Below, in pieces: positions 1-7,835 of a stretch of 7,835 nt of DNA; positions within the stretch are counted from its first letter, which is position 1; the number at the start of each line of letters is the position of its first letter. The stretch is from a virus. Taxonomy: Duplodnaviria; Heunggongvirae; Uroviricota; Caudoviricetes. Location of the stretch: the IMG/VR virus record IMGVR_UViG_2713896791_000024, positions 1 through 7,835 of that record; one strand, given 5' to 3'. Under the pieces are notes generated by a model. That model made no database searches and had not been told where the DNA came from. It saw nothing but the letters and a program-made list of their open reading frames with translations. A program made the position numbers and the translations under genes.

Positions 1-20
1 TTTCAAAATATTCCGCTATT

Positions 21-56
21 TGCTCCCAATGCAAAACATATATTGCATTGGGAGCA
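21..56 (+). terminator. Inverted repeat with T-rich tail; candidate intrinsic terminator for a plus-strand gene ending upstream of the window, or a protein-binding palindrome
   Basis: Seen in sequence: TGCTCCCAATGCA (21-33) and its exact reverse complement TGCATTGGGAGCA (44-56), separated by 10 nt (one extra A:T pair is possible) and followed by TATTCATATTTTTGTTATT. On the minus strand no T-run follows the stem, so it is unlikely to terminate the 184..489 ORF. Confidence 0.35.
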
Positions 57-183
57 TATTCATATTTTTGTTATTATTGTATGAAATCGTCTCATGTACA
101 CGGTCCTTTTTTCGCCGAAAACTGATATTACTTTAATCAAAAGTTGACGTGCCAGATTCGAAGTAAATTTATAAAATATCAAA

Positions 184-489
184 TCAATATACATTTTGCA
201 CCTTCGAGATAGTAATGACTGTTACTGTAACATGAGTTACAAACAGCTTCATACCCAGAGCTACTGATGTATCAACTCGATTCAACAATACCCGATATTT
301 ATTCCATGCCTCCAGCAACGATCTTTCTTCCTCCGTTGCGATTTCCAGATCTACAGCATCCTGCAGTGGCGCAATATACTCACTGAATTCCTGGATGTAG
401 AACTGTGTGGTGACGGTCTTCCAGCCATTCAGCTCCTGCTGTATCGAAGCATACCAGGCTATTTCAATATCGCTATGCTGCGGCAGCAT
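184..489 (-). CDS. Small ORF (101 aa) carrying a tail fibre assembly (Tfa) C-terminal motif; probable remnant or paralogue of a second tfa 3' end
   Basis: Residues ~38-76 ([40 protein letters not shown]) match the C-terminal region of the tfa product at 3002..3577 (36 of 40 residues by eye). At DNA level 265..386 aligns with 3038..3159 at about 105 of 122 positions (manual alignment), in direct orientation. ATG at 489 is immediately preceded by an in-frame stop; an AAGGGG Shine-Dalgarno-like motif lies only 3 nt upstream. The N-terminal 37 aa and C-terminal 25 aa do not resemble Tfa. Confidence 0.45.
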
Positions 490-545
490 TTAACCCCTTG
501 TAATTCATCGCCATAATTGATTTAATTCACAAATAAAACTATAAC

Positions 546-1214
546 ATGGTGAAATTAATGAAAAAAAACACAGATGATGGGGCTAAAATTTACACACCAC
601 TTACCCTAAAGCTTTATGACTGGTGGGTTTTGGGAGTATCAAATCGGCTTGCATGGGGATGTCCTACAAAGGAACACCTTCTTCCACACTTTCTGGAACA
701 TTTAGGTAACAACCATCTGGATATTGGTGTTGGAACTGGGTTTTACCTTACTCACGTACCTGAGAGTAGTCTGATATCTTTAATGGATTTGAACGAAGCT
801 AGCCTGAACGCGGCATCTACAAGGGCTGGGGAATCAAAAATTAAACATAAAATTAACCATGATGTTTTTGAACCTTATCCCGCGGCGTTACATGGTCAAT
901 TTGATTCCATTTCCATGTTTTACCTTCTTCACTGCCTGCCTGGAAATATATCTACAAAAAGCTGTGTAATACGCAATGCGGCGCAGGCCTTAACTGACGA
1001 TGGAACTCTATACGGAGCCACAATTCTTGGCGATGGAGTTGTGCACAATAGCTTCGGTCAAAAACTGATGCGCATTTACAATCAGAAAGGCATCTTTTCA
1101 AACACAAAAGATTCCGAAGAAGGCTTAACACATATACTCTCAGAGCATTTCGAGAATGTTAAAACCAAGGTTCAAGGTACTGTAGTAATGTTTTCCGCTT
1201 CAGGGAAAAAATAG
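546..1214 (+). CDS. Class I SAM-dependent methyltransferase, probably small-molecule type (UbiE/COQ5-like fold), substrate unknown
   Basis: 222-aa ORF with Rossmann-fold methyltransferase motifs read from the translation: motif I LDIGVGTG, acidic post-I LMDLN, motif II FDSISMFYLLHCL, motif III LTDDGTLYGATI. N-terminal YDWW...S...W pattern resembles the UbiE-family signature. No DPPY/NPPY motif, so probably not an N6-adenine DNA methyltransferase. Start is uncertain: ATG at 546 lacks an obvious Shine-Dalgarno, ATG at 558 has GGTGA 5 nt upstream. Visibly more AT-rich than the tail genes. Family assignment is from memory, not a search. Confidence 0.7.
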   Translation: MVKLMKKNTDDGAKIYTPLTLKLYDWWVLGVSNRLAWGCPTKEHLLPHFLEHLGNNHLDIGVGTGFYLTHVPESSLISLMDLNEASLNAASTRAGESKIKHKINHDVFEPYPAALHGQFDSISMFYLLHCLPGNISTKSCVIRNAAQALTDDGTLYGATILGDGVVHNSFGQKLMRIYNQKGIFSNTKDSEEGLTHILSEHFENVKTKVQGTVVMFSASGKK

Positions 1215-1220
1215 CATCCA

Positions 1221-1261
1221 ACCGCAGCACGTTCTTGCATAAGGCGTGTCTGCGGTTTTTC
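1221..1261 (+). terminator. Candidate Rho-independent terminator downstream of the methyltransferase gene
   Basis: ACCGCAGCACG (1221-1231) pairs with CGTGTCTGCGGT (1245-1256) with one bulged T, followed by TTTTT (1256-1260); begins 7 nt after the TAG stop at 1212-1214. Confidence 0.5.
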
Positions 1262-1579
1262 AACTATTCAGATACATCACTCCCATCACATTCATTCCTC
1301 CGCATCATAGGCATATAGGCTATATCACCTTGATATTTTTCTTCTTCAGATAAAAACTGTTATCTATGTATACTTTTAAACCCAATCCGTGTAGAGTCTC
1401 TGCATAAGATAGTTTGCAGTTGCCACTTCAGCTTGCGCCATAAACCGCCTGATTTTTGCCGCCACCTGTTAGCATTCCTGTATACCTGAAACGACAATGT
1501 TTATCTACGAACTTTAAGAACACCCAGGATAAAAATTGTCAACTATATCATATATAACACATTACTAATTCGAGGCTAT

Positions 1580-1693
1580 ATGAACAGCATACTGATAATC
1601 ACTTCGCTCCTTATCATATTCAGCATTTTTAGTCATGCTCTAATAAAATTAGGGATTGGCATATCCAATAACCCAGACAAAACCGATGTATAA
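1580..1693 (+). CDS. Candidate 37-codon small hydrophobic protein (single predicted transmembrane helix) in the leader upstream of the ydfK-like gene
   Basis: ATG 1580, TAA 1691-1693; translation [41 protein letters not shown] at 1572-1575 lies 4 nt upstream of the ATG. Below the size cutoff of the supplied ORF track. AT-rich DNA readily yields Ile/Leu/Phe-rich ORFs by chance, so this is tentative. Confidence 0.3.
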
Positions 1694-1761
1694 GTCAACA
1701 TATCCTGAATCAGACATACAATATCGCAATGAAAATCAATAATATTTTAAGGAATATCTTC

Positions 1762-1995
1762 ATGAAATCAAAAGACACCCTAAAGTGGTTCCCTGCGCAG
1801 CTTCCTGAAGTAAGAATTATCCTAGGGGATGCTGTAGTGGAAGTAGCAAAACAGGGAAGACCTATCAATACCAGAACATTGCTTGATTACATTGAAGGAA
1901 ACATAAAGAAAAAGTCATGGCTGGATAACAAAGAATTATTACAAACAGCGATATCAGTTCTTAAAGACAACAAAAATTTAAATGGTAAAATGTAA
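1762..1995 (+). CDS. ydfK: YnaE/YdfK-family small protein (the cold-shock-induced small proteins encoded beside pinR/pinQ in E. coli K-12 Rac and Qin prophages)
   Basis: 77-aa product MKSKDTLKWFPAQLPEVRIILGDAVVEVAKQGRPINTRTLLDYIEGNIKKKSWLDNKELLQTAISVLKDNKNLNGKM. I chose the ATG at 1762 (AAGGAA Shine-Dalgarno at 1749-1754) over the upstream in-frame ATG at 1729. Immediately upstream of, and co-oriented with, a pin gene, as in the K-12 ydfK-pinQ and pinR-ynaE neighbourhoods. Family and gene order are recalled from memory. Confidence 0.7.
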   Translation: MKSKDTLKWFPAQLPEVRIILGDAVVEVAKQGRPINTRTLLDYIEGNIKKKSWLDNKELLQTAISVLKDNKNLNGKM

Positions 1996-2224
1996 TATAA
2001 TAAACTTACTTTTTTATCATTTTTCCACTTTAACAACATTTTGCTCCACTTTTCCACGACCAAACAACTTGAAATCTGGTTAAAATAACACGCAACACTA
2101 TTCTTCTTCCTTGAGTCCGCCCGGAACTCGAAAAACAAACCGAGTTAAGGCCATTTTTCACAAAATCGATTTTGGGTCTCACCAAAATTACGGGGTTGCA
2201 TACGCATTCGTTTATTTTCGAACG

Positions 2225-2288
2225 TGTACATACAAATATGTACAAAAATAATCAAAATTATTTTCTGAGATGCATTATGATATGTACA
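2225..2288. promoter_or_regulatory. Cluster of TGTACA-containing palindromic sites upstream of pin; candidate operator or promoter-overlapping binding sites
   Basis: TGTACATA-caaa-TATGTACA at 2225-2244 is a perfect 8-4-8 inverted repeat; ATATGTACA recurs at 2280-2288, 44 bp after the copy at 2236-2244. All lie 25-90 bp upstream of the pin ATG at 2314. Function is inferred only. Confidence 0.3.
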
Positions 2289-2313
2289 CCAATTTCGTAT
2301 AGAAGATCTCACT

Positions 2314-2904
2314 ATGTCTCGAATTTATGCTTACTGTCGGGTATCAACTCTGGAACAGACAACCAAAAATCAACGTCGGGAAATCGAAAGTGCAGGTTTT
2401 AACATCAAATCTCAGCAAATAATTGAAGAACAAATTAGCGGCTCAGCAGCAACCAGTGAGCGTCCTGGTTTTAACCAGTTGCTTGATCGACTGAAAAGAG
2501 GTGATGCATTGATTGTCACAAAACTGGATCGCCTCGGTTGTAATCCAATGGATATCAGTAAAACGGTGGAACAACTGACCAAAGCAGGTATCAAAGTGCA
2601 TTGCTTAGCATTGGGGGGCGTTGACCTGACCAGTCCACCTGGAAAAATGATGATGCAAGTAATTTCAGCAGTCGCTGAATTTGAGCGAGACCTTTTACTT
2701 GAGCGTACTCATTCAGGGATATTAAGAGCACGGGGCGCAGGAAAGCGATTTGGTCGCCCACCTGTGTTAAATGATGAACAAATACAGAGGGTACTAGAGC
2801 AAATTAAGTCAGGTATAAATATAAGTGACATTGCCCAAGAATTCAAAACCTCGCGGCAAACCATTTTAAGAGCTAAAGCAAAAAATCAGACACCTGATAT
2901 ATAA
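2314..2904 (+). CDS. pin: Serine recombinase of the resolvase/invertase family (Pin-like DNA invertase), with Cys at the position of a conserved catalytic Arg
   Basis: 196-aa ORF. N-terminal catalytic domain with YCRVSTLEQ (Ser11 aligning to the Ser10 nucleophile of gamma-delta/Tn3 resolvase) and [10 protein letters not shown]; C-terminal helix-turn-helix region ([10 protein letters not shown]...[20 protein letters not shown]). The usual DRLGR motif reads DRLGCN (Cys76, TGT at 2539-2541). Convergent with tfa, as in K-12 pinQ-tfaQ. Confidence 0.9.
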
Positions 2905-2908
2905 AAAT

Positions 2909-2936
2909 AATCTCGGTGTGAGATTCCTTACGTTTT
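2909..2936 (+). terminator. Weak hairpin plus T-tract after pin; possible terminator
   Basis: AATCTC (2909-2914) pairs with GAGATT (2920-2925) around a 5-nt loop; a TTTT tract follows at 2933-2936, 7 nt after the stem. AT-rich short stem, so weak. Confidence 0.25.
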
Positions 2937-3001
2937 CCAAGCCCCCCTTCCTAGCCTTAAATGGAAAGATACTTCTAATTATAGAATTTATATATCTTAC
3001 C

Positions 3002-3577
3002 CTACGGTAGGGCTGGCCATTCAATATCCGGTGCAGTTGATGTATCAACACGGTTCAGCAACACCCGATACTTTTTCCAGGCTTCCAGCAACAAGGTTTC
3101 TTCCTCCGTTGCGATCTCCAGATCCACAGCATCCTGAAGCGGCGCAATATGCTCACTGGCTACCTGCATCAGGCTGTTTTTTGTTTCTTCCGCCTCCCGG
3201 ATCCGGAACAGTTTTTCTGCTTCCGTATCCTTCACCCAGGCTGTGCCGTTCCACTTCTGATATTCCCCTCCCGGCGATAACCAGGTAACATTTTCCGGTA
3301 ACGGACCGAGTTCAGAAATAAATAACGCGTCGCCGGAAGCCACGTCATAAACCGTTTTACCCCGATGATCTTCAACGAGATGCCACGATGCCTCATCACT
3401 GTTGAAAACAGCCACGAAGCCTGCCGGAATATCTGGCGGTGCAATATCGATACTGTTTGCTGGCAGACCTGTATGAGGCGGAATATATGCGTCACCTTCA
3501 CCAATAAATTCATTAGTTCCTGCCAGCAGATTATAAATTTTTATGGTCCGTGGTTGTTCACTCATTCTGAATGCCAT
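3002..3577 (-). CDS. tfa: Tail fibre assembly protein (lambda Tfa family)
   Basis: 191-aa product beginning [41 protein letters not shown], matching lambda Tfa as I recall it over nearly its whole length. ATG at 3575-3577 overlaps the stf stop codon (3577-3579) by one nucleotide (TAATG on the minus strand), implying translational coupling. Confidence 0.93.
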
Positions 3578-6492
3578 TATGCAAGCCTCACAATGTAGTT
3601 AAATGCGATGTTTTTGACAGTGTTTTCCGCGTTACCAGCAGCGTTAACGGTGATGGTGTGTCCATGTGAGCCAATCGCAACAGAGTGCGTATGAGCACCA
3701 ATACCGACAGTATGTGCGTGAGCACCTGCAGATGCAGCTGTGCCGCTGACACTATGAGTGTGCGCTCCTGCAGCACTTGTATTCACACTGGCCGCAGACA
3801 CTACCTTATGTACTGACCCATTTTGTGACCACTGGCTGACTGCTGATGCGCCTGTGACACTATGAGTATGGTTTCCGGCACTTGCGGCTGTACCGCTCAC
3901 ACTGTGCGTATGCGCCCCGGTGTTATTCGTGGATTTAGTGCCGTAATCAAACGACGATGTGGTTTTCGTCCCCAAATCCGTACTGGATGCACTGGCGCTG
4001 TGGGTGTGCGATTTAATGCCGTCCTGTTCCTGAGACAATACGGCCCGACCACTGGCAGGTTTGCCCTTAATCGTCCAGCCACGCATATCAGGGATCACGC
4101 CTGACGGATAAGCGGTTGCAAGTTTCGGGTAAGCGGATTTGTCAAAAGTCTGCCCCTGCATCAGGGCATAACCAGACGGAACGGTATCTGATGGCCACGG
4201 GATTGGTGCGCCAGGCGGATAAAACTGCTCTGATGGTGTATAGAGTGAATAAACTGTACCGTCCGTTAACCCTTCCGGCTTATTAGCAGAATATGCTGGT
4301 GACGTATGAATAGTCACGCTGGCATTACTGGTATAATCCCATTGAATATTTACACCAGTCGCATAATTTCCGATTGCAACGTAAATATCGTAAGTATCAC
4401 CAGATGTATTGACCCAGGCAAAATTTGTAAACCCTGTCGATGTGCGCTGCCATAAAGCACCAGTAATCCCCTTCGGATTACCATTACCTGCACGCAAAAC
4501 AAGTTCAGATATACCTGCCTGTTGAGGTGACCCCACGTTAAATCCCGCGCCACCAATCAACGTAATTGAAACAACAGAACTCGCCTGTGGCATGGTTACC
4601 GTTGCTAATTTGAACCAACCAGCACCACCGCTGAATGACATTGTTGTTGAGTTAAGCGTACCAATATCTTTCGGCGTCAGTGTTATATCCGCTGAAAGCG
4701 CCTTACCATTCACCTTACGGGCAGAAGGTACCCGACCATTCGCATTATCATTAGCTGCTTTCACTGCTTTCGGTGTCGCGGCAAGCGTTTCAGATGCGCT
4801 GTTGGTTGCACTACTGAGCTGGACAATTCCTTTTTGTGCTGTCGTAGCGTCCTGAGCAGTATATTTCCCGTTAGCAAGGTCATAGGCTGCCTTTACCGAC
4901 TTTGGCGTTGCCGCCAGCATTTCAGATGTGCTGTTGGTCGCGCTGCTGAGCTGAACTATCCCTTTCTGTGCTGTCGTTGCATCCTGTGCGGTGTATTTCC
5001 CGTTAGCCAGCTCATACGCGGCCTTAACGGCTTTTGGCGTTGCCGCCAGTGACTCGGAAGTGCTGTTAGTCGCACTGCTGAGCTGTACTATCCCCTTTTT
5101 CGTCGTGCTCGCATCCTCAAGCGCCACGGCGGATGCAATATCCTCTGCCCGTTTTGCCGCTGTCTCGGCGCGCGTTGCCGCGGATTCCGCCGTACTTTTG
5201 CTCTGAGCTGCCGCCGTCGCACTGCCAGCTGCCTCTGTCGCCTTCGTGGATGCCGTCGTGGCGCTGCCCTTTGCTGCTGACGCCTGTCTGGTCGCCTCAT
5301 CTTTTGAAGCAGACGCAGATGATGCCGATGACGCCGCCGAACTGGCGGACGATGCGGCAGCCGTTTTTGAGGATTCTGCGCTGGTTTCCGACGCTTTCGC
5401 GTTCGTCTCGGATGTCTTCGCTGCGGAAGCAGACCTCGCTGCTGCGCTGGCCTGTTCAGTGGCTTCGCCAGCCTTCGTTGTGGCTGTTGAAGCGGACGAT
5501 GCGGCGCTTTCTGCCGATTTTCCGGCAGCGGTGGCACTGGCTGAGGCCTGCCCGGCACTTGTTGACGCGGCACTGGCAGACGACGCAGCCGCTGTTTTTG
5601 AGCCTGCCGCAGCTGAGGCGCTCTGTCCCGCTGCCGTCTCAGAAGACCTGGCGTTCGTCTCGGACGTTTTTGCCGCCTTCGCGGAATTTGCTGCCGCCGT
5701 TGCCGAGGAAGCTGCGCTACTGGCGCTCGAGGATGCGTTCGTTTCTGATGATTTTGCCGCCTCTTTTGAAGCCGACGCATCCCGGGCTGAGGTGGCAGCT
5801 TCTGACGCTTTCGTGGTCGCGGTGGATGCAGAAGTGGCGGCTGATTGTTGTGACGCTGCAGCATTCGTTTCTGACGTTTTCGCGGCAGCGGCACTGGTAG
5901 CTGCCGCGCTTTTTGAGGACTCTGCAGCGGCAGCACTTTTTTCCGCTTCAGTGGCCTTTGTTGATGCCGTTCCTGCGCTGGAAGACGCTGACTGAGCCGA
6001 CGAAGCGGCCTGTCCGGCTGACGTGCTGGCTGCACGTGCTGAATCTGCAGCATCAGTCGCATGGGTTGCCGCCTCACGGGCAGATGTGCCGGCATCACTG
6101 GCTGACTTCTTCGCGGCTGCCGTGTTCTGTGCCACCACGGACGCGTTACGCGCCACCTCTTCCACCATCTGTTCAAAACGGCGCAGTGCCTCCGGACGGG
6201 CATCATCCTCCGTCATGGCACCGAGAAAATCATTCAGCGTACCGGGTTGAGAATCTTCATACACGGTGATGGTCCCGGCATGTGACGGCGGGAATCCTTC
6301 CACCAACAGAATAACGCTGTACTGCCCGTACTCAACGTCCATGCTGTAACGCCCGGCTTCATCCGGATTTTCTGAGGCCAGCGTGTTCACCACCACCGTG
6401 GTGCTGTTACGTTTTGCTTTCAGCTGGATTGTGCAGTTCTGTACCGGTTTTCCTGTGCCGTCTTTCAGTACACCTGAAATCTTTACTGCCAT
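3577..6492 (-). CDS. stf: Side tail fibre protein (lambda Stf family), 971 aa
   Basis: Starts [26 protein letters not shown], matching the lambda Stf N-terminus as I recall it. Contains a long Ala/Ser/Thr-rich fibrous region, three tandem 44-aa repeats ([27 protein letters not shown]...), and a C-terminal tip with repeated His-x-His motifs. Start is placed at the ATG at 6490-6492 (GGGGTGA Shine-Dalgarno-like motif just upstream); the ORF-track extension to 6612 reads through the N-gap and the lom terminator and is an artefact. An identical start context is duplicated after the gap at 6567-6569. Confidence 0.9.
4750..5097 (-). repeat. Three tandem copies (two full, one partial) of a 132-bp unit inside stf encoding a 44-aa phage tail fibre repeat
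   Basis: The string CTGAGCTG recurs at 4814, 4946 and 5078 on the plus strand (period 132 bp). Protein repeats [44 protein letters not shown] occur three times, the last diverging after KAVKAA. Confidence 0.8.
5100..6000 (-). repeat. Low-complexity Ala/Ser/Thr-rich region of stf with degenerate internal repeats (AAKTSETNA-type)
   Basis: The translation contains several [18 protein letters not shown]-like units within a roughly 300-aa Ala/Ser/Thr-rich stretch. GCN-rich codons generate long artefactual ORFs in other frames on both strands. Confidence 0.75.
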
Positions 6493-6503
6493 ATTCACCC
6501 CAC

Positions 6504-6553
6504 NNNNNNNNNNNNNNNNNNNNNNNNNNNNNNNNNNNNNNNNNNNNNNNNNN
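6504..6553. other. Scaffold gap (50 N) flanked by a 27-bp exact duplication; probable unresolved contig overlap rather than missing sequence
   Basis: AAATCTTTACTGCCATATTCACCCCAC occurs at 6477-6503 immediately before the N-run and again at 6554-6580 immediately after. Collapsing the duplication leaves about 64 bp between the lom stop and the stf start, close to the lambda lom-stf spacing as I recall it. Confidence 0.8.
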
Positions 6554-6579
6554 AAATCTTTACTGCCATATTCACCCCA

Positions 6580-6607
6580 CAAAAAAGCCCGCCTGAACCG
6601 GCGGGCT
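6580..6607 (-). terminator. Rho-independent terminator downstream of lom, immediately upstream of the stf ribosome-binding site
   Basis: Minus strand reads AGCCCGCC-GGTTCA-GGCGGGCT (8-bp GC-rich stem, 6-nt loop) followed by TTTTTTG; plus-strand stem arms at 6586-6593 and 6600-6607, A-run at 6581-6586. Confidence 0.75.
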
Positions 6608-6633
6608 GTCATAACTCTGTGTTACCTGGCTAA

Positions 6634-7257
6634 TCAGAATTTATAACCGACCCCCACAATGAAACCGTCAGTGCGCCAGTCGCCACTGCCGGAGCCTTCA
6701 TAAGCAAGGTCAATAACCACCGTCTCTACGGGACTGAACTGAATCCCGGCATTCCAGGCCGGCGACAGATGACGCGCAGTATGACCATCACTGGCGGTGG
6801 TGGTCTCCTTCACATACCCCGGTTTCACTTCATCACGCCGGTAATCCTGAACACTGTCAGACCAGCGGGTGTACGCCATCCCGGCCATGCCATAGAGACT
6901 GACCCGCTCACTGAGCTGCCAGACAGGGCCGGCCATCAGACTGACATAACGACCGCGCAGGCTTTCATAATGGAAGGTATTTTCACCCGTCTTCATCGTG
7001 TCACTTTTCTTCACCGATGCATAACTCAGCGCGACAATGCCGCCCAGGTGATCCGTGAACTCATAACGGTATTTCACGTTAATCCCTTTTAAATCACCTG
7101 CACGCGCACCGGTACCGGACAATGCCGGTACGCCGCCCGGGTGAACCTGAGCATATCCCACGGAAAATGCACCGTGTCCGCTTTCAGCCTGTGCAGGAAA
7201 GGCAATTCCTGCCAGCAGGGTAGTAAACAATAATATCGTTGCGTATAAATGCCGCAT
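6634..7257 (-). CDS. lom: Lom-like outer-membrane protein (Ail/Lom/PagC family 8-strand beta-barrel)
   Basis: 207-aa product MRHLYATILLFTTLLAGIAFPAQA|ESGHGAFSVGYAQ... ending ...DWRTDGFIVGVGYKF, with signal peptide and C-terminal aromatic residue; closely resembles lambda Lom as I recall it. Start chosen at ATG 7255-7257 with AAGAGG Shine-Dalgarno 5 nt upstream; the ORF-track extension to 7293 runs into the upstream terminator. Confidence 0.9.
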   Translation of the reverse strand: MRHLYATILLFTTLLAGIAFPAQAESGHGAFSVGYAQVHPGGVPALSGTGARAGDLKGINVKYRYEFTDHLGGIVALSYASVKKSDTMKTGENTFHYESLRGRYVSLMAGPVWQLSERVSLYGMAGMAYTRWSDSVQDYRRDEVKPGYVKETTTASDGHTARHLSPAWNAGIQFSPVETVVIDLAYEGSGSGDWRTDGFIVGVGYKF

Positions 7258-7281
7258 GATTACCTCTTTGTTTTCAGTCAA

Positions 7282-7306
7282 TAAAAAAGGCACCTCCTGA
7301 GGTGCC
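7282..7306 (-). terminator. Rho-independent terminator between the J-like gene and lom
   Basis: Minus strand reads GGCACCT-CAGG-AGGTGCC followed by TTTTTTATT; plus-strand coordinates 7289-7306 for the palindrome and 7283-7288 for the A-run. Confidence 0.65.
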
Positions 7307-7325
7307 CGTCCGGGTTAATAAACCG

Positions 7326-7835
7326 TCAGCTGATACTGATCCCTGCTGTGGATTTTTTCATGACCACAACCAGTAAATCACTGATGTACGTTGTCGGCGT
7401 CCAGTTGTTCGCACCGGCCGACGACACATTAAACGTCAGGGTGACATGACCCCGCCCTGCCGGCATATCTATCACCGATGAGAACACCCGGCTGACATCC
7501 GTTGCCGGTTCATGGAAAATCTCAACCCCGTTCTTCAGCACCTGCAGCTTACAGGTGGAATACCAGTACGACTGCTGATTCGGGCTGTTGAAATTCTGGT
7601 GTTTCGTCCCGCGAAACAGCACCGGGGGAATGATGATCTGCCGGTCGAAGCCCTGGTCATCGTAAACTGTGACGGTTACCGTCCCGCTGGCATAACTGTT
7701 ATTCCGGGGAAAGGCTTTCCCCACCGTCTTCACCAGGTCGCCTTCAATCTGGTTTGCAGACAGTTTCCCTCTGATGACACAGTTCTCGTTAATGGTGACA
7801 TTATTGAGCGTGCCGGTATTCGCGGTAATTGCTCC
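7326..7835 (-). CDS. J: Host specificity / tail tip protein J, C-terminal receptor-binding region (5' end outside window)
   Basis: Reading frame is open from the window edge at 7835 to the TGA at 7326-7328. The translation ([19 protein letters not shown]...[12 protein letters not shown]...) resembles the lambda J C-terminus as I recall it. The ORF-track start at 7733 is an internal GTG, not the true start. Followed by lom, as in lambda. Confidence 0.85.

Follow-up and report, generated by a model that had tools for sequence, protein, structure and literature searches.

A gene annotated as "DNA invertase Pin" beside tail-fibre genes leads readers to expect a host-range switch. What does such a gene act on when no invertible segment can be recognised near it? 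This question is raised by a 7,835-nucleotide stretch of viral DNA (Caudoviricetes; positions 1 to 7,835 of IMG/VR record IMGVR_UViG_2713896791_000024), which we refer to in full as the window and which carries such a gene, here called pin, next to the tail-fibre genes tfa and stf. Window positions 1-3600 are 100% identical to a lambdoid prophage of Shiga toxin-producing Escherichia coli (STEC)-type strains, for example O103:H2 12009, and the complete 44.6-kb prophage was rebuilt from that genome (NC_013353.1). An earlier note on this DNA had described pin as a Pin-like invertase that is either an orphan or acts on a substrate elsewhere or of a different kind, comparing it with the invertases of Mu, P1 and e14. 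Here, we find that the gene at 2314-2904 is most probably the orphan tnpR of a decayed, transposase-less Tn3-family mini-element, with res and not an invertible segment as its ancestral substrate.

The recombinase gene and its surrounding element

The open reading frame (ORF) at 2314-2904 encodes a Pfam Resolvase domain (PF00239, 1e-37) followed by a C-terminal HTH_7 domain (PF02796, 1.8e-11); the end given in the earlier note, 3001, is the ORF end at 2904 plus a 97-nt spacer up to the tfa stop codon. The protein is 85% identical to PinR and PinQ of E. coli K-12 and 84-85% identical to the "invertase" of the viable lambdoid phages HannyBb, mEp460, 2H10 and Tritos, while identity is 38% to PinE and 33-35% to Gin and Cin. 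Members of the Hin/Gin/Cin/PinE group are about 60% or more identical to one another. Against solved structures, the protein is about equally distant from Gin (99 bits) and γδ resolvase (85 bits) and close to neither. Its nearest relatives outside prophages are TnpR resolvases with 72-80% identity, which come from many genera, lie on plasmids and chromosomes, and are often plasmid-borne (1,850 records of a plasmid collection match the recombinase). With 33-38% identity to Gin, Cin and PinE versus 72-80% to TnpR, together with the relics of terminal repeats, res and target duplication described below, the premise of a Pin-like invertase had to be abandoned. Since the protein is not of the Gin/Cin/PinE type, the comparison with Mu, P1 and e14 set an expectation that never applied.

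Features of the putative element, in window coordinates, are as follows.

2107-2111, no strand: left copy of the target-site duplication, TTCCT, identical to the five bases outside the right repeat
2112-2149, + strand: relic of the left 38-bp terminal inverted repeat, Tn3-family, an ungapped match to the family repeats
2199-2224, + strand: decayed relic of res site I, the ancestral crossover site, aligned to the family consensus TGTCCGAAACCGnTCGGTTTCGTACA
2239-2270, + strand: relic of res site II, aligned to the family site II consensus
2276-2304, + strand: -10-like TATGAT (2276-2281) and relic of res site III (2281-2304), adjoining the gene, aligned with the family TATAAT and site III
2314-2904, + strand: pin, orthologous to pinR/pinQ and encoding a 196-aa small serine recombinase of the tnpR type in which Cys76 takes the γδ/Tn3 Arg71 position, assigned from Pfam, identity and alignment
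2908-2947, - strand: relic of the right terminal inverted repeat, in gapped alignment to the ISSba14 repeat
2948-2952, no strand: right copy of the target-site duplication, TTCCT, just outside the right repeat

Tn3-family resolvases act on two directly repeated res sites in the transposition cointegrate. Three dimers bind subsites I-III upstream of tnpR, with strand exchange at the centre of site I, and the same binding represses the tnpR promoter. The relatives of the window protein are found in such a setting. A Shewanella relative (76%) and a Vibrio relative (73%) adjoin DDE_Tnp_Tn3 transposases of 980-994 aa, of which the Shewanella transposase is named "Tn3-like element ISSba14 family" by NCBI, and an 80% relative on pCFSAN004181P adjoins an annotated Tn3-family transposase. 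By tblastn, a Tn3-type transposase, whole or in fragments, is present in 29 of 80 genome loci from different species, and no TnpA was detected in the window or in any of the nine prophage-type loci. Across the family, 66 distinct upstream regions share a conserved three-subsite res in which a TATAAT separates sites II and III; the site II consensus reads TGTCCGAAAGTnAGTGAAATTAATTTCGKACA, and site III adjoins the tnpR start codon. The Shewanella transposon has perfect 38-bp terminal repeats, GGGGTCCGCTTGGAAAACGGAAAATATCCCACGCTAAG, one of them directly after the tnpR stop codon, and is flanked by its own 5-bp duplication, TTTAA.

An intact counterpart of the window element lies on plasmid pAPEC-O1-ColBM, where an 852-bp mini-element lacking a transposase has the order repeat, res, tnpR, repeat, with the repeats at -215 and +599 from the tnpR start codon. 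Since its flanks form no target duplication, the plasmid locus has probably been rearranged. A ParE/RHH toxin-antitoxin pair adjoins this mini-element on the site I side and lies outside its left repeat, pair and element together falling within locus positions 4941-6637; toxin-antitoxin pairs abutting res site I have been described for Tn3-family transposons (PMC7157771).

In the window, the same layout of terminal repeat, res, tnpR and terminal repeat spans 836 bp (2112-2947). The left repeat agrees with its intact pAPEC-O1-ColBM counterpart at 27 of 38 positions and with the ISSba14 repeat at 25 of 38, both ungapped. It is the best terminal-repeat match on either strand of the window, and its score of 17 was reached in none of 200 randomisations. 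The right repeat scores second best (15.5), a value reached somewhere in 7.8 kb by 4 of 200 randomisations. The two repeats are inverted and lie at -202 and +594 from the pin start, close to their spacing in the intact mini-element, and the repeats of the prophage copies are about 65-70% conserved overall. The TTCCT flanks are kept in Rac, Qin and phage HannyBb. Since only 49 bp separate the left repeat from site I, there is no room for a transposase, and the element has a non-autonomous form.

The region 2199-2304 aligns column by column to the family res and matches 43 of 52 high-information columns (family minimum 47, median 51), with no complete dyad left. Using a matrix built on the family res half-sites, we found that the two best half-site scores of the window both fall within this relic, namely the left half of site II (12.2 bits; right half, -0.8) and the right half of site III, TATACGAAATT (12.5 bits). 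The halves of site I score -3.7 and 5.0 bits (family 5th percentile 9.6, median 15) and form no recognisable dyad. We take the half-site TGTCCGAAA to resemble those of γδ and Tn3. No res dyad and no second res were found anywhere in the 44.6-kb prophage. On this alignment, the upstream region is a res relic, not evidently a functional res.

Together, these features suggest that an ancestral lambdoid phage received the element between its ydfK and tfa genes by transposition, with transposase supplied in trans, and that the insertion created the TTCCT duplication. Its resolvase would originally have resolved cointegrates at directly repeated res sites while repressing its own promoter. In the window and in all prophage copies the element has since decayed, losing the site I dyad and keeping only single half-sites of sites II and III around the promoter.

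High identity and synteny (tfa, pin, ydfK/ynaE, ynaM/ynfT) place the gene in the PinR/PinQ orthologue group. PinR in Rac and PinQ in Qin of K-12 are also 196 aa long, lie in the same neighbourhood, and have in common with the window gene the terminal-repeat relics, the TTCCT flanks and the Cys at the R71 position. On the other hand, the window allele is distinct, with about 10% DNA divergence from 2241 onward and a few promoter-proximal bases in the plasmid form, and its location in STEC-type strains is a prophage at the DLP12 site rather than Rac or Qin. Of 5,426 complete E. coli genomes, 2,799 carry the pin element, some in up to three copies, and 134 carry the window allele at ≥99% identity.

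Among known systems, the ISSba14-family TnpR/res modules of Shewanella, Vibrio and enterobacterial plasmids resemble the window locus in protein sequence, in homologous res I-III and promoter, in the same 38-bp repeat directly after the stop codon, and in the 5-bp target duplication. Unlike them, the window locus has no transposase, its repeats and res have decayed, the catalytic Arg is replaced by Cys, and purifying selection is relaxed. TIME-RES, a non-autonomous Tn3-derived element made up only of res and a resolvase gene (Szuplewska et al. 2014, PMC4133298), likewise has 38-bp Tn3-type repeats around res and tnpR, no tnpA, and a 5-6-bp duplication, and the pAPEC-O1-ColBM element is an intact enterobacterial example of this architecture. 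TIME-RES itself comes from Pseudomonas, is related to Tn5563, encodes a 309-aa resolvase and has been shown to transpose (PMC4133298). The window element, of a different Tn3 subgroup, is degenerate and has become fixed within lambdoid phage genomes. It is a further example of a non-autonomous Tn3-family element with a resolution module, in this case in a phage genome. The γδ and Tn3 resolvases share with the window protein the fold class and a three-subsite res upstream of tnpR with site III adjoining the gene, but sequence similarity is only about 85 bits and their R71 is Cys in the window protein. PinE with the e14 P segment, Gin, Cin and Hin are likewise small serine recombinases with a C-terminal helix-turn-helix, encoded beside tail-fibre genes; in contrast to these, inverted 26-bp crossover sites and alternative fibre ends are both missing from the window.

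The gene and its orphan status were already known, as was the element type. In the literature searched, we found no statement linking PinR or PinQ to Tn3-family TnpR and none on the Arg-to-Cys change. Recognising that the gene is a resolvase captured from a transposon, with its res decayed and one catalytic Arg lost, corrects a common annotation: for the PinR/PinQ type, carried by about half of complete E. coli genomes, the expectation of a host-range switch is unfounded.

Crossover sites and inverted repeats

Invertase crossover sites of the Hin/Gin/Cin/Pin group are 26 bp long with the form TTNTCNNAAACC-NN-GGTTTNNGANAA, and two inverted copies are expected around the adjacent segment. We scanned for the consensus TTNTCNNAAACCNNGGTTTNNGANAA, counting mismatches out of 18, and as a positive control this recovered both e14 sites with one mismatch each. 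No crossover site above chance was found in the window, where the best match had 5 of 18 mismatches and the best of randomised sequences had 5-6 in 85 of 100 cases, or in the whole 44.6-kb prophage, where the best match again had 5 of 18 (random, 4-6). A simple search for the AAACCNNGGTTT core gave three matches versus 3.9 expected. Generic inverted repeats in the window were at or near chance, the longest being 27 nt with 74% complementarity. Those in the 44.6-kb prophage included nothing like a crossover pair, with a longest exact repeat of 18 nt, and a search around the HannyBb orthologue also gave nothing resembling a crossover pair.

Opposite-orientation alternative fibre ends or tfa copies are likewise absent from the window. 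ORF, Pfam and matching-genome annotation all give single copies of stf and tfa, the latter intact, and the only other tfa-like sequence (184-489) is in direct orientation, with 251-396 and 3024-3169 on the same strand and 82% identical over 146 nt. The earlier note was therefore right that no invertible substrate can be recognised here and that stf and tfa are single-copy. Its view of the gene as an orphan also stood, and "a substrate of a different kind" pointed in the right direction, namely to res; the decay of that res and the loss of the Arg lie beyond the options that it offered. Since an invertible tail-fibre segment was never part of a TnpR/res system, its absence is no anomaly.

Several candidates met along the way were set aside. 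The 18-nt exact inverted repeat CCGTACTGGATGCACTGG, at 597,895 and 611,345 of NC_013353.1 (the latter about window 3978-3995), spans 13.4 kb and links the minor tail U gene with the 3' part of stf. It is 18 nt long versus a maximum of 17 nt in 30 randomisations and is unlike any recombinase site, and inversion between its copies would disrupt two tail genes, so we rejected it as the border of an invertible segment. A 16-nt inverted repeat (2256-2271/2409-2424, 15 of 16 complementary) spans the pin promoter and 5' coding region, and it was rejected as a promoter switch for want of conservation, with 13 of 16 positions pairing in Rac and only 3-10 of 16 in other family members. The perfect palindrome TGTACATACAAATATGTACA (2225-2244, 8+4+8), considered as a binding site, is allele-specific and carries one or two mismatches in Rac, Qin and HannyBb. 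An RNA gene as the reason for the high conservation between ydfK and pin was also dismissed: Rfam gives no relevant match in this intergenic region, which belongs to a 99.5% identical block taking in the coding genes as well.

The catalytic position and the present role of the protein

In the alignment to γδ resolvase, C76 of the window protein occupies the R71 position, which leaves the catalytic set (Y6, R8, S10, D36, R68 and R71 in Tn3 numbering) incomplete. The window protein keeps Y7, R9, S11 and R73, and E39 stands at the D36 position throughout the whole family. The R71 position is Cys in all nine prophage-type loci, covering both prophage alleles, and Arg in 71 of 71 other loci; among 120 cluster representatives it is Arg in 113 and Cys in 4, with the motif not found in 3. 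In Tn3 resolvase, the R71A and R71K changes abolish recombination and slow cleavage about 1000-fold while binding is retained (PMC2794168). The ratio of nonsynonymous to synonymous substitution rates is 0.34-0.38 between prophage alleles (0.34 versus PinR) and 0.08-0.15 among transposon-borne genes; purifying selection on the prophage gene is relaxed, not gone.

With a single decayed res and one catalytic Arg missing, the protein would have no substrate in cis and would be at best a slow, probably very slow, recombinase. Selection would then most likely preserve DNA binding, either for autoregulation or at related res or res-like sites in trans; that the gene persists in live phages and in 2,799 of 5,426 E. 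coli genomes suggests that such a binding role has been retained. The present role may be residual activity in trans, as reported for PinQ on e14, or non-catalytic DNA binding. In the report in question, the only experimental work on this point (Kirigo et al., NAR 2025, PMC12529663), P-segment inversion in e14 rose from about 30% to 88% when PinQ was produced. Deleting pinQ reduced inversion as well as the survival of T2-infected cells, and the PinQ effect required stfP, stfE and e14.

Some observations weigh against descent of pin from a decayed Tn3-family element that no longer has a substrate. Both terminal repeats have degenerated, and a 2-nt gap is needed to align the right one. A search with the two flanks joined, for which an empty site would read ...CTTCTTCCTAGCCTTAAATGG..., covered 5,426 E. 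coli genomes and 50,697 phage records and gave no ydfK-tfa junction lacking the 836 bp, so the insertion event is deduced from the repeats and the duplication only. The intact ORF, some purifying selection, and carriage by about half of the E. coli genomes and by viable lambdoid phages argue for a retained function which descent as a relic does not name. Lastly, a direct effect of PinQ would mean that the enzyme can catalyse recombination in spite of the Cys.

A tentative extension of the same origin would account for the PinQ effect differently. PinR/PinQ-type proteins could be crippled TnpR (Arg71 to Cys) that lambdoid phages have domesticated as DNA-binding factors, in which case the stimulation of e14 inversion and T2 resistance would be indirect, with PinQ either a modulator of PinE, the true invertase, or bound to res-like sites. 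If true, PinQ would be a recombination regulator or a decoy carried by half of all E. coli.

Alternatively, the protein could be an active invertase working in trans on a Pin-type tail-fibre segment elsewhere, such as the e14 P segment, which we consider unlikely. Over-produced PinQ, which is 85% identical and has the same Cys, brings P-segment inversion to the 88% cited above (PMC12529663), and the recognition-helix region (12 residues) is identical between the window protein and PinQ. On the other hand, a pinE mutant is locked in one orientation (PMC12529663), so chromosomal PinQ alone does not invert the P segment and PinQ may act indirectly. Both proteins have Cys at the catalytic R71 position, and the e14 crossover half-sites reach at most 3.8 bits on the family res matrix (family minimum 4.4, median 15); with such weak matches, direct action on the e14 pix sites by DNA-binding specificity was rejected. 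Furthermore, the e14 stfP-pinE region (≥80% covered) occurs in only 170 of the 5,426 genomes that were searched for the pin element. The Arg-to-Cys change and the locked pinE mutant bear on the claim that PinQ and PinR are active anti-T2 invertases.

We regard as highly improbable that the gene encodes a still-functional resolvase acting on its own upstream res-like region, whether on phage or prophage multimers or between two prophage copies in one genome. In favour of this, the res relic has the expected homology and position and is conserved in part, and some genomes have up to three copies of the element. In addition, the window is 99.5% identical to Rac over 1500-2237 (4 differences; neighbour region 99.4-100%) and about 90% identical over 2241-3001 and on into tfa, and the switch falls somewhere within 2150-2241, an interval that includes the site I relic. 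Read from the alignment, the switch is compatible with an old exchange at res but is accounted for just as well by ordinary homologous recombination: the mosaic boundary cannot be pinned to site I, and divergence runs past the element into tfa. Against a working resolvase also stand the missing site I dyad (-3.7 and 5.0 bits), the lack of a second res or of any res dyad in the prophage, the Cys at the R71 equivalent, and a comparison of E. coli genomes in which neither Rac nor Qin showed rearrangements (Kirigo et al., PMC12529663). Finally, a remnant of a Gin/Cin/Pin inversion system that lost its alternative stf'/tfa' arm and one crossover site, which would fit the way pin adjoins and converges on tfa as pinE lies beside the e14 P segment, is already contradicted by the 33-38% identity to that group, by the lack of even a single crossover site in the window and prophage scans, by the Tn3-type repeats, res relic and 5-bp duplication that bracket the gene, and by viable phages (HannyBb, mEp460, 2H10, Tritos) in which the same module is also without an invertible segment.

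The surrounding window and its assembly

The remaining genes of the window are listed below.

184-489, - strand: tfaX-like 3' fragment (tfaX'), with Pfam Caudo_TAP over residues 30-77
546-1214, + strand: intact ybcY-type class I S-adenosylmethionine-dependent methyltransferase, 222 aa
1580-1693, + strand: ynaM/ynfT-like gene, from annotation of the identical locus, a conserved left neighbour of the element
1762-1995, + strand: ydfK, from annotation of the identical locus, a conserved left neighbour of the element
3002-3577, - strand: tfa (tail fibre assembly), intact and single-copy (Pfam Caudo_TAP, 1.3e-43; annotated in NC_013353.1)
3577-6492, - strand: stf (side tail fibre), single-copy, an annotated coding sequence in the matching genome
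6634-7293, - strand: lom, from the gene order of the window
7326-7733, - strand: J', from the gene order of the window

The matching prophage is integrated at the argU/DLP12 site, adjoining ompT, and window 1-6503 differs from the O103:H2 12009 locus at 2 of 6,503 positions (99.97% identity). The run of 50 N at 6504-6553 is a scaffold gap outside the stf coding sequence, just upstream of its true start. In the ORF list, the stf start was artificially extended across this run, and the start annotated in the matching genome is 6492. Two identical 27-mers, AAATCTTTACTGCCATATTCACCCCAC, border the run (window 6477-6580). Since this 27-mer is single-copy in the complete genome, the window consists of two contigs that overlap by one k-mer and were joined by N. 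Past the gap, an ungapped comparison with O103:H2 12009 differs at 760 of 1,282 positions; by that comparison, the lom/J part may carry an indel or originate from a different prophage.

At the end of the prophage, the ybcY-type methyltransferase gene separates the tfaX' fragment from the ynaM/ydfK block; it is intact in the window, whereas its K-12 counterpart ybcY is a pseudogene. The tfaX' fragment is 97% identical to the ybcY-tfaX region of K-12 DLP12, where the tfaD 3' end is joined almost directly to ybcY (locus positions 5076-5113). A 1.76-kb block with ynaM, ydfK and the pin element (window 1256-3014) is not present in K-12 DLP12 and is thus an insertion/deletion difference among DLP12-site prophages; the direct tfa/tfaX' repeat (3024-3169 and 251-396) flanks this block plus ybcY on both sides. 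Within tfa, the Rfam family IS009, an E. coli small RNA candidate, matches at 3036-3234 (- strand) with 224 bits, above the gathering score, and more weakly in the tfaX' fragment at 263-466 (- strand, 108 bits). The IS009 model evidently covers conserved tfa 3' coding sequence.

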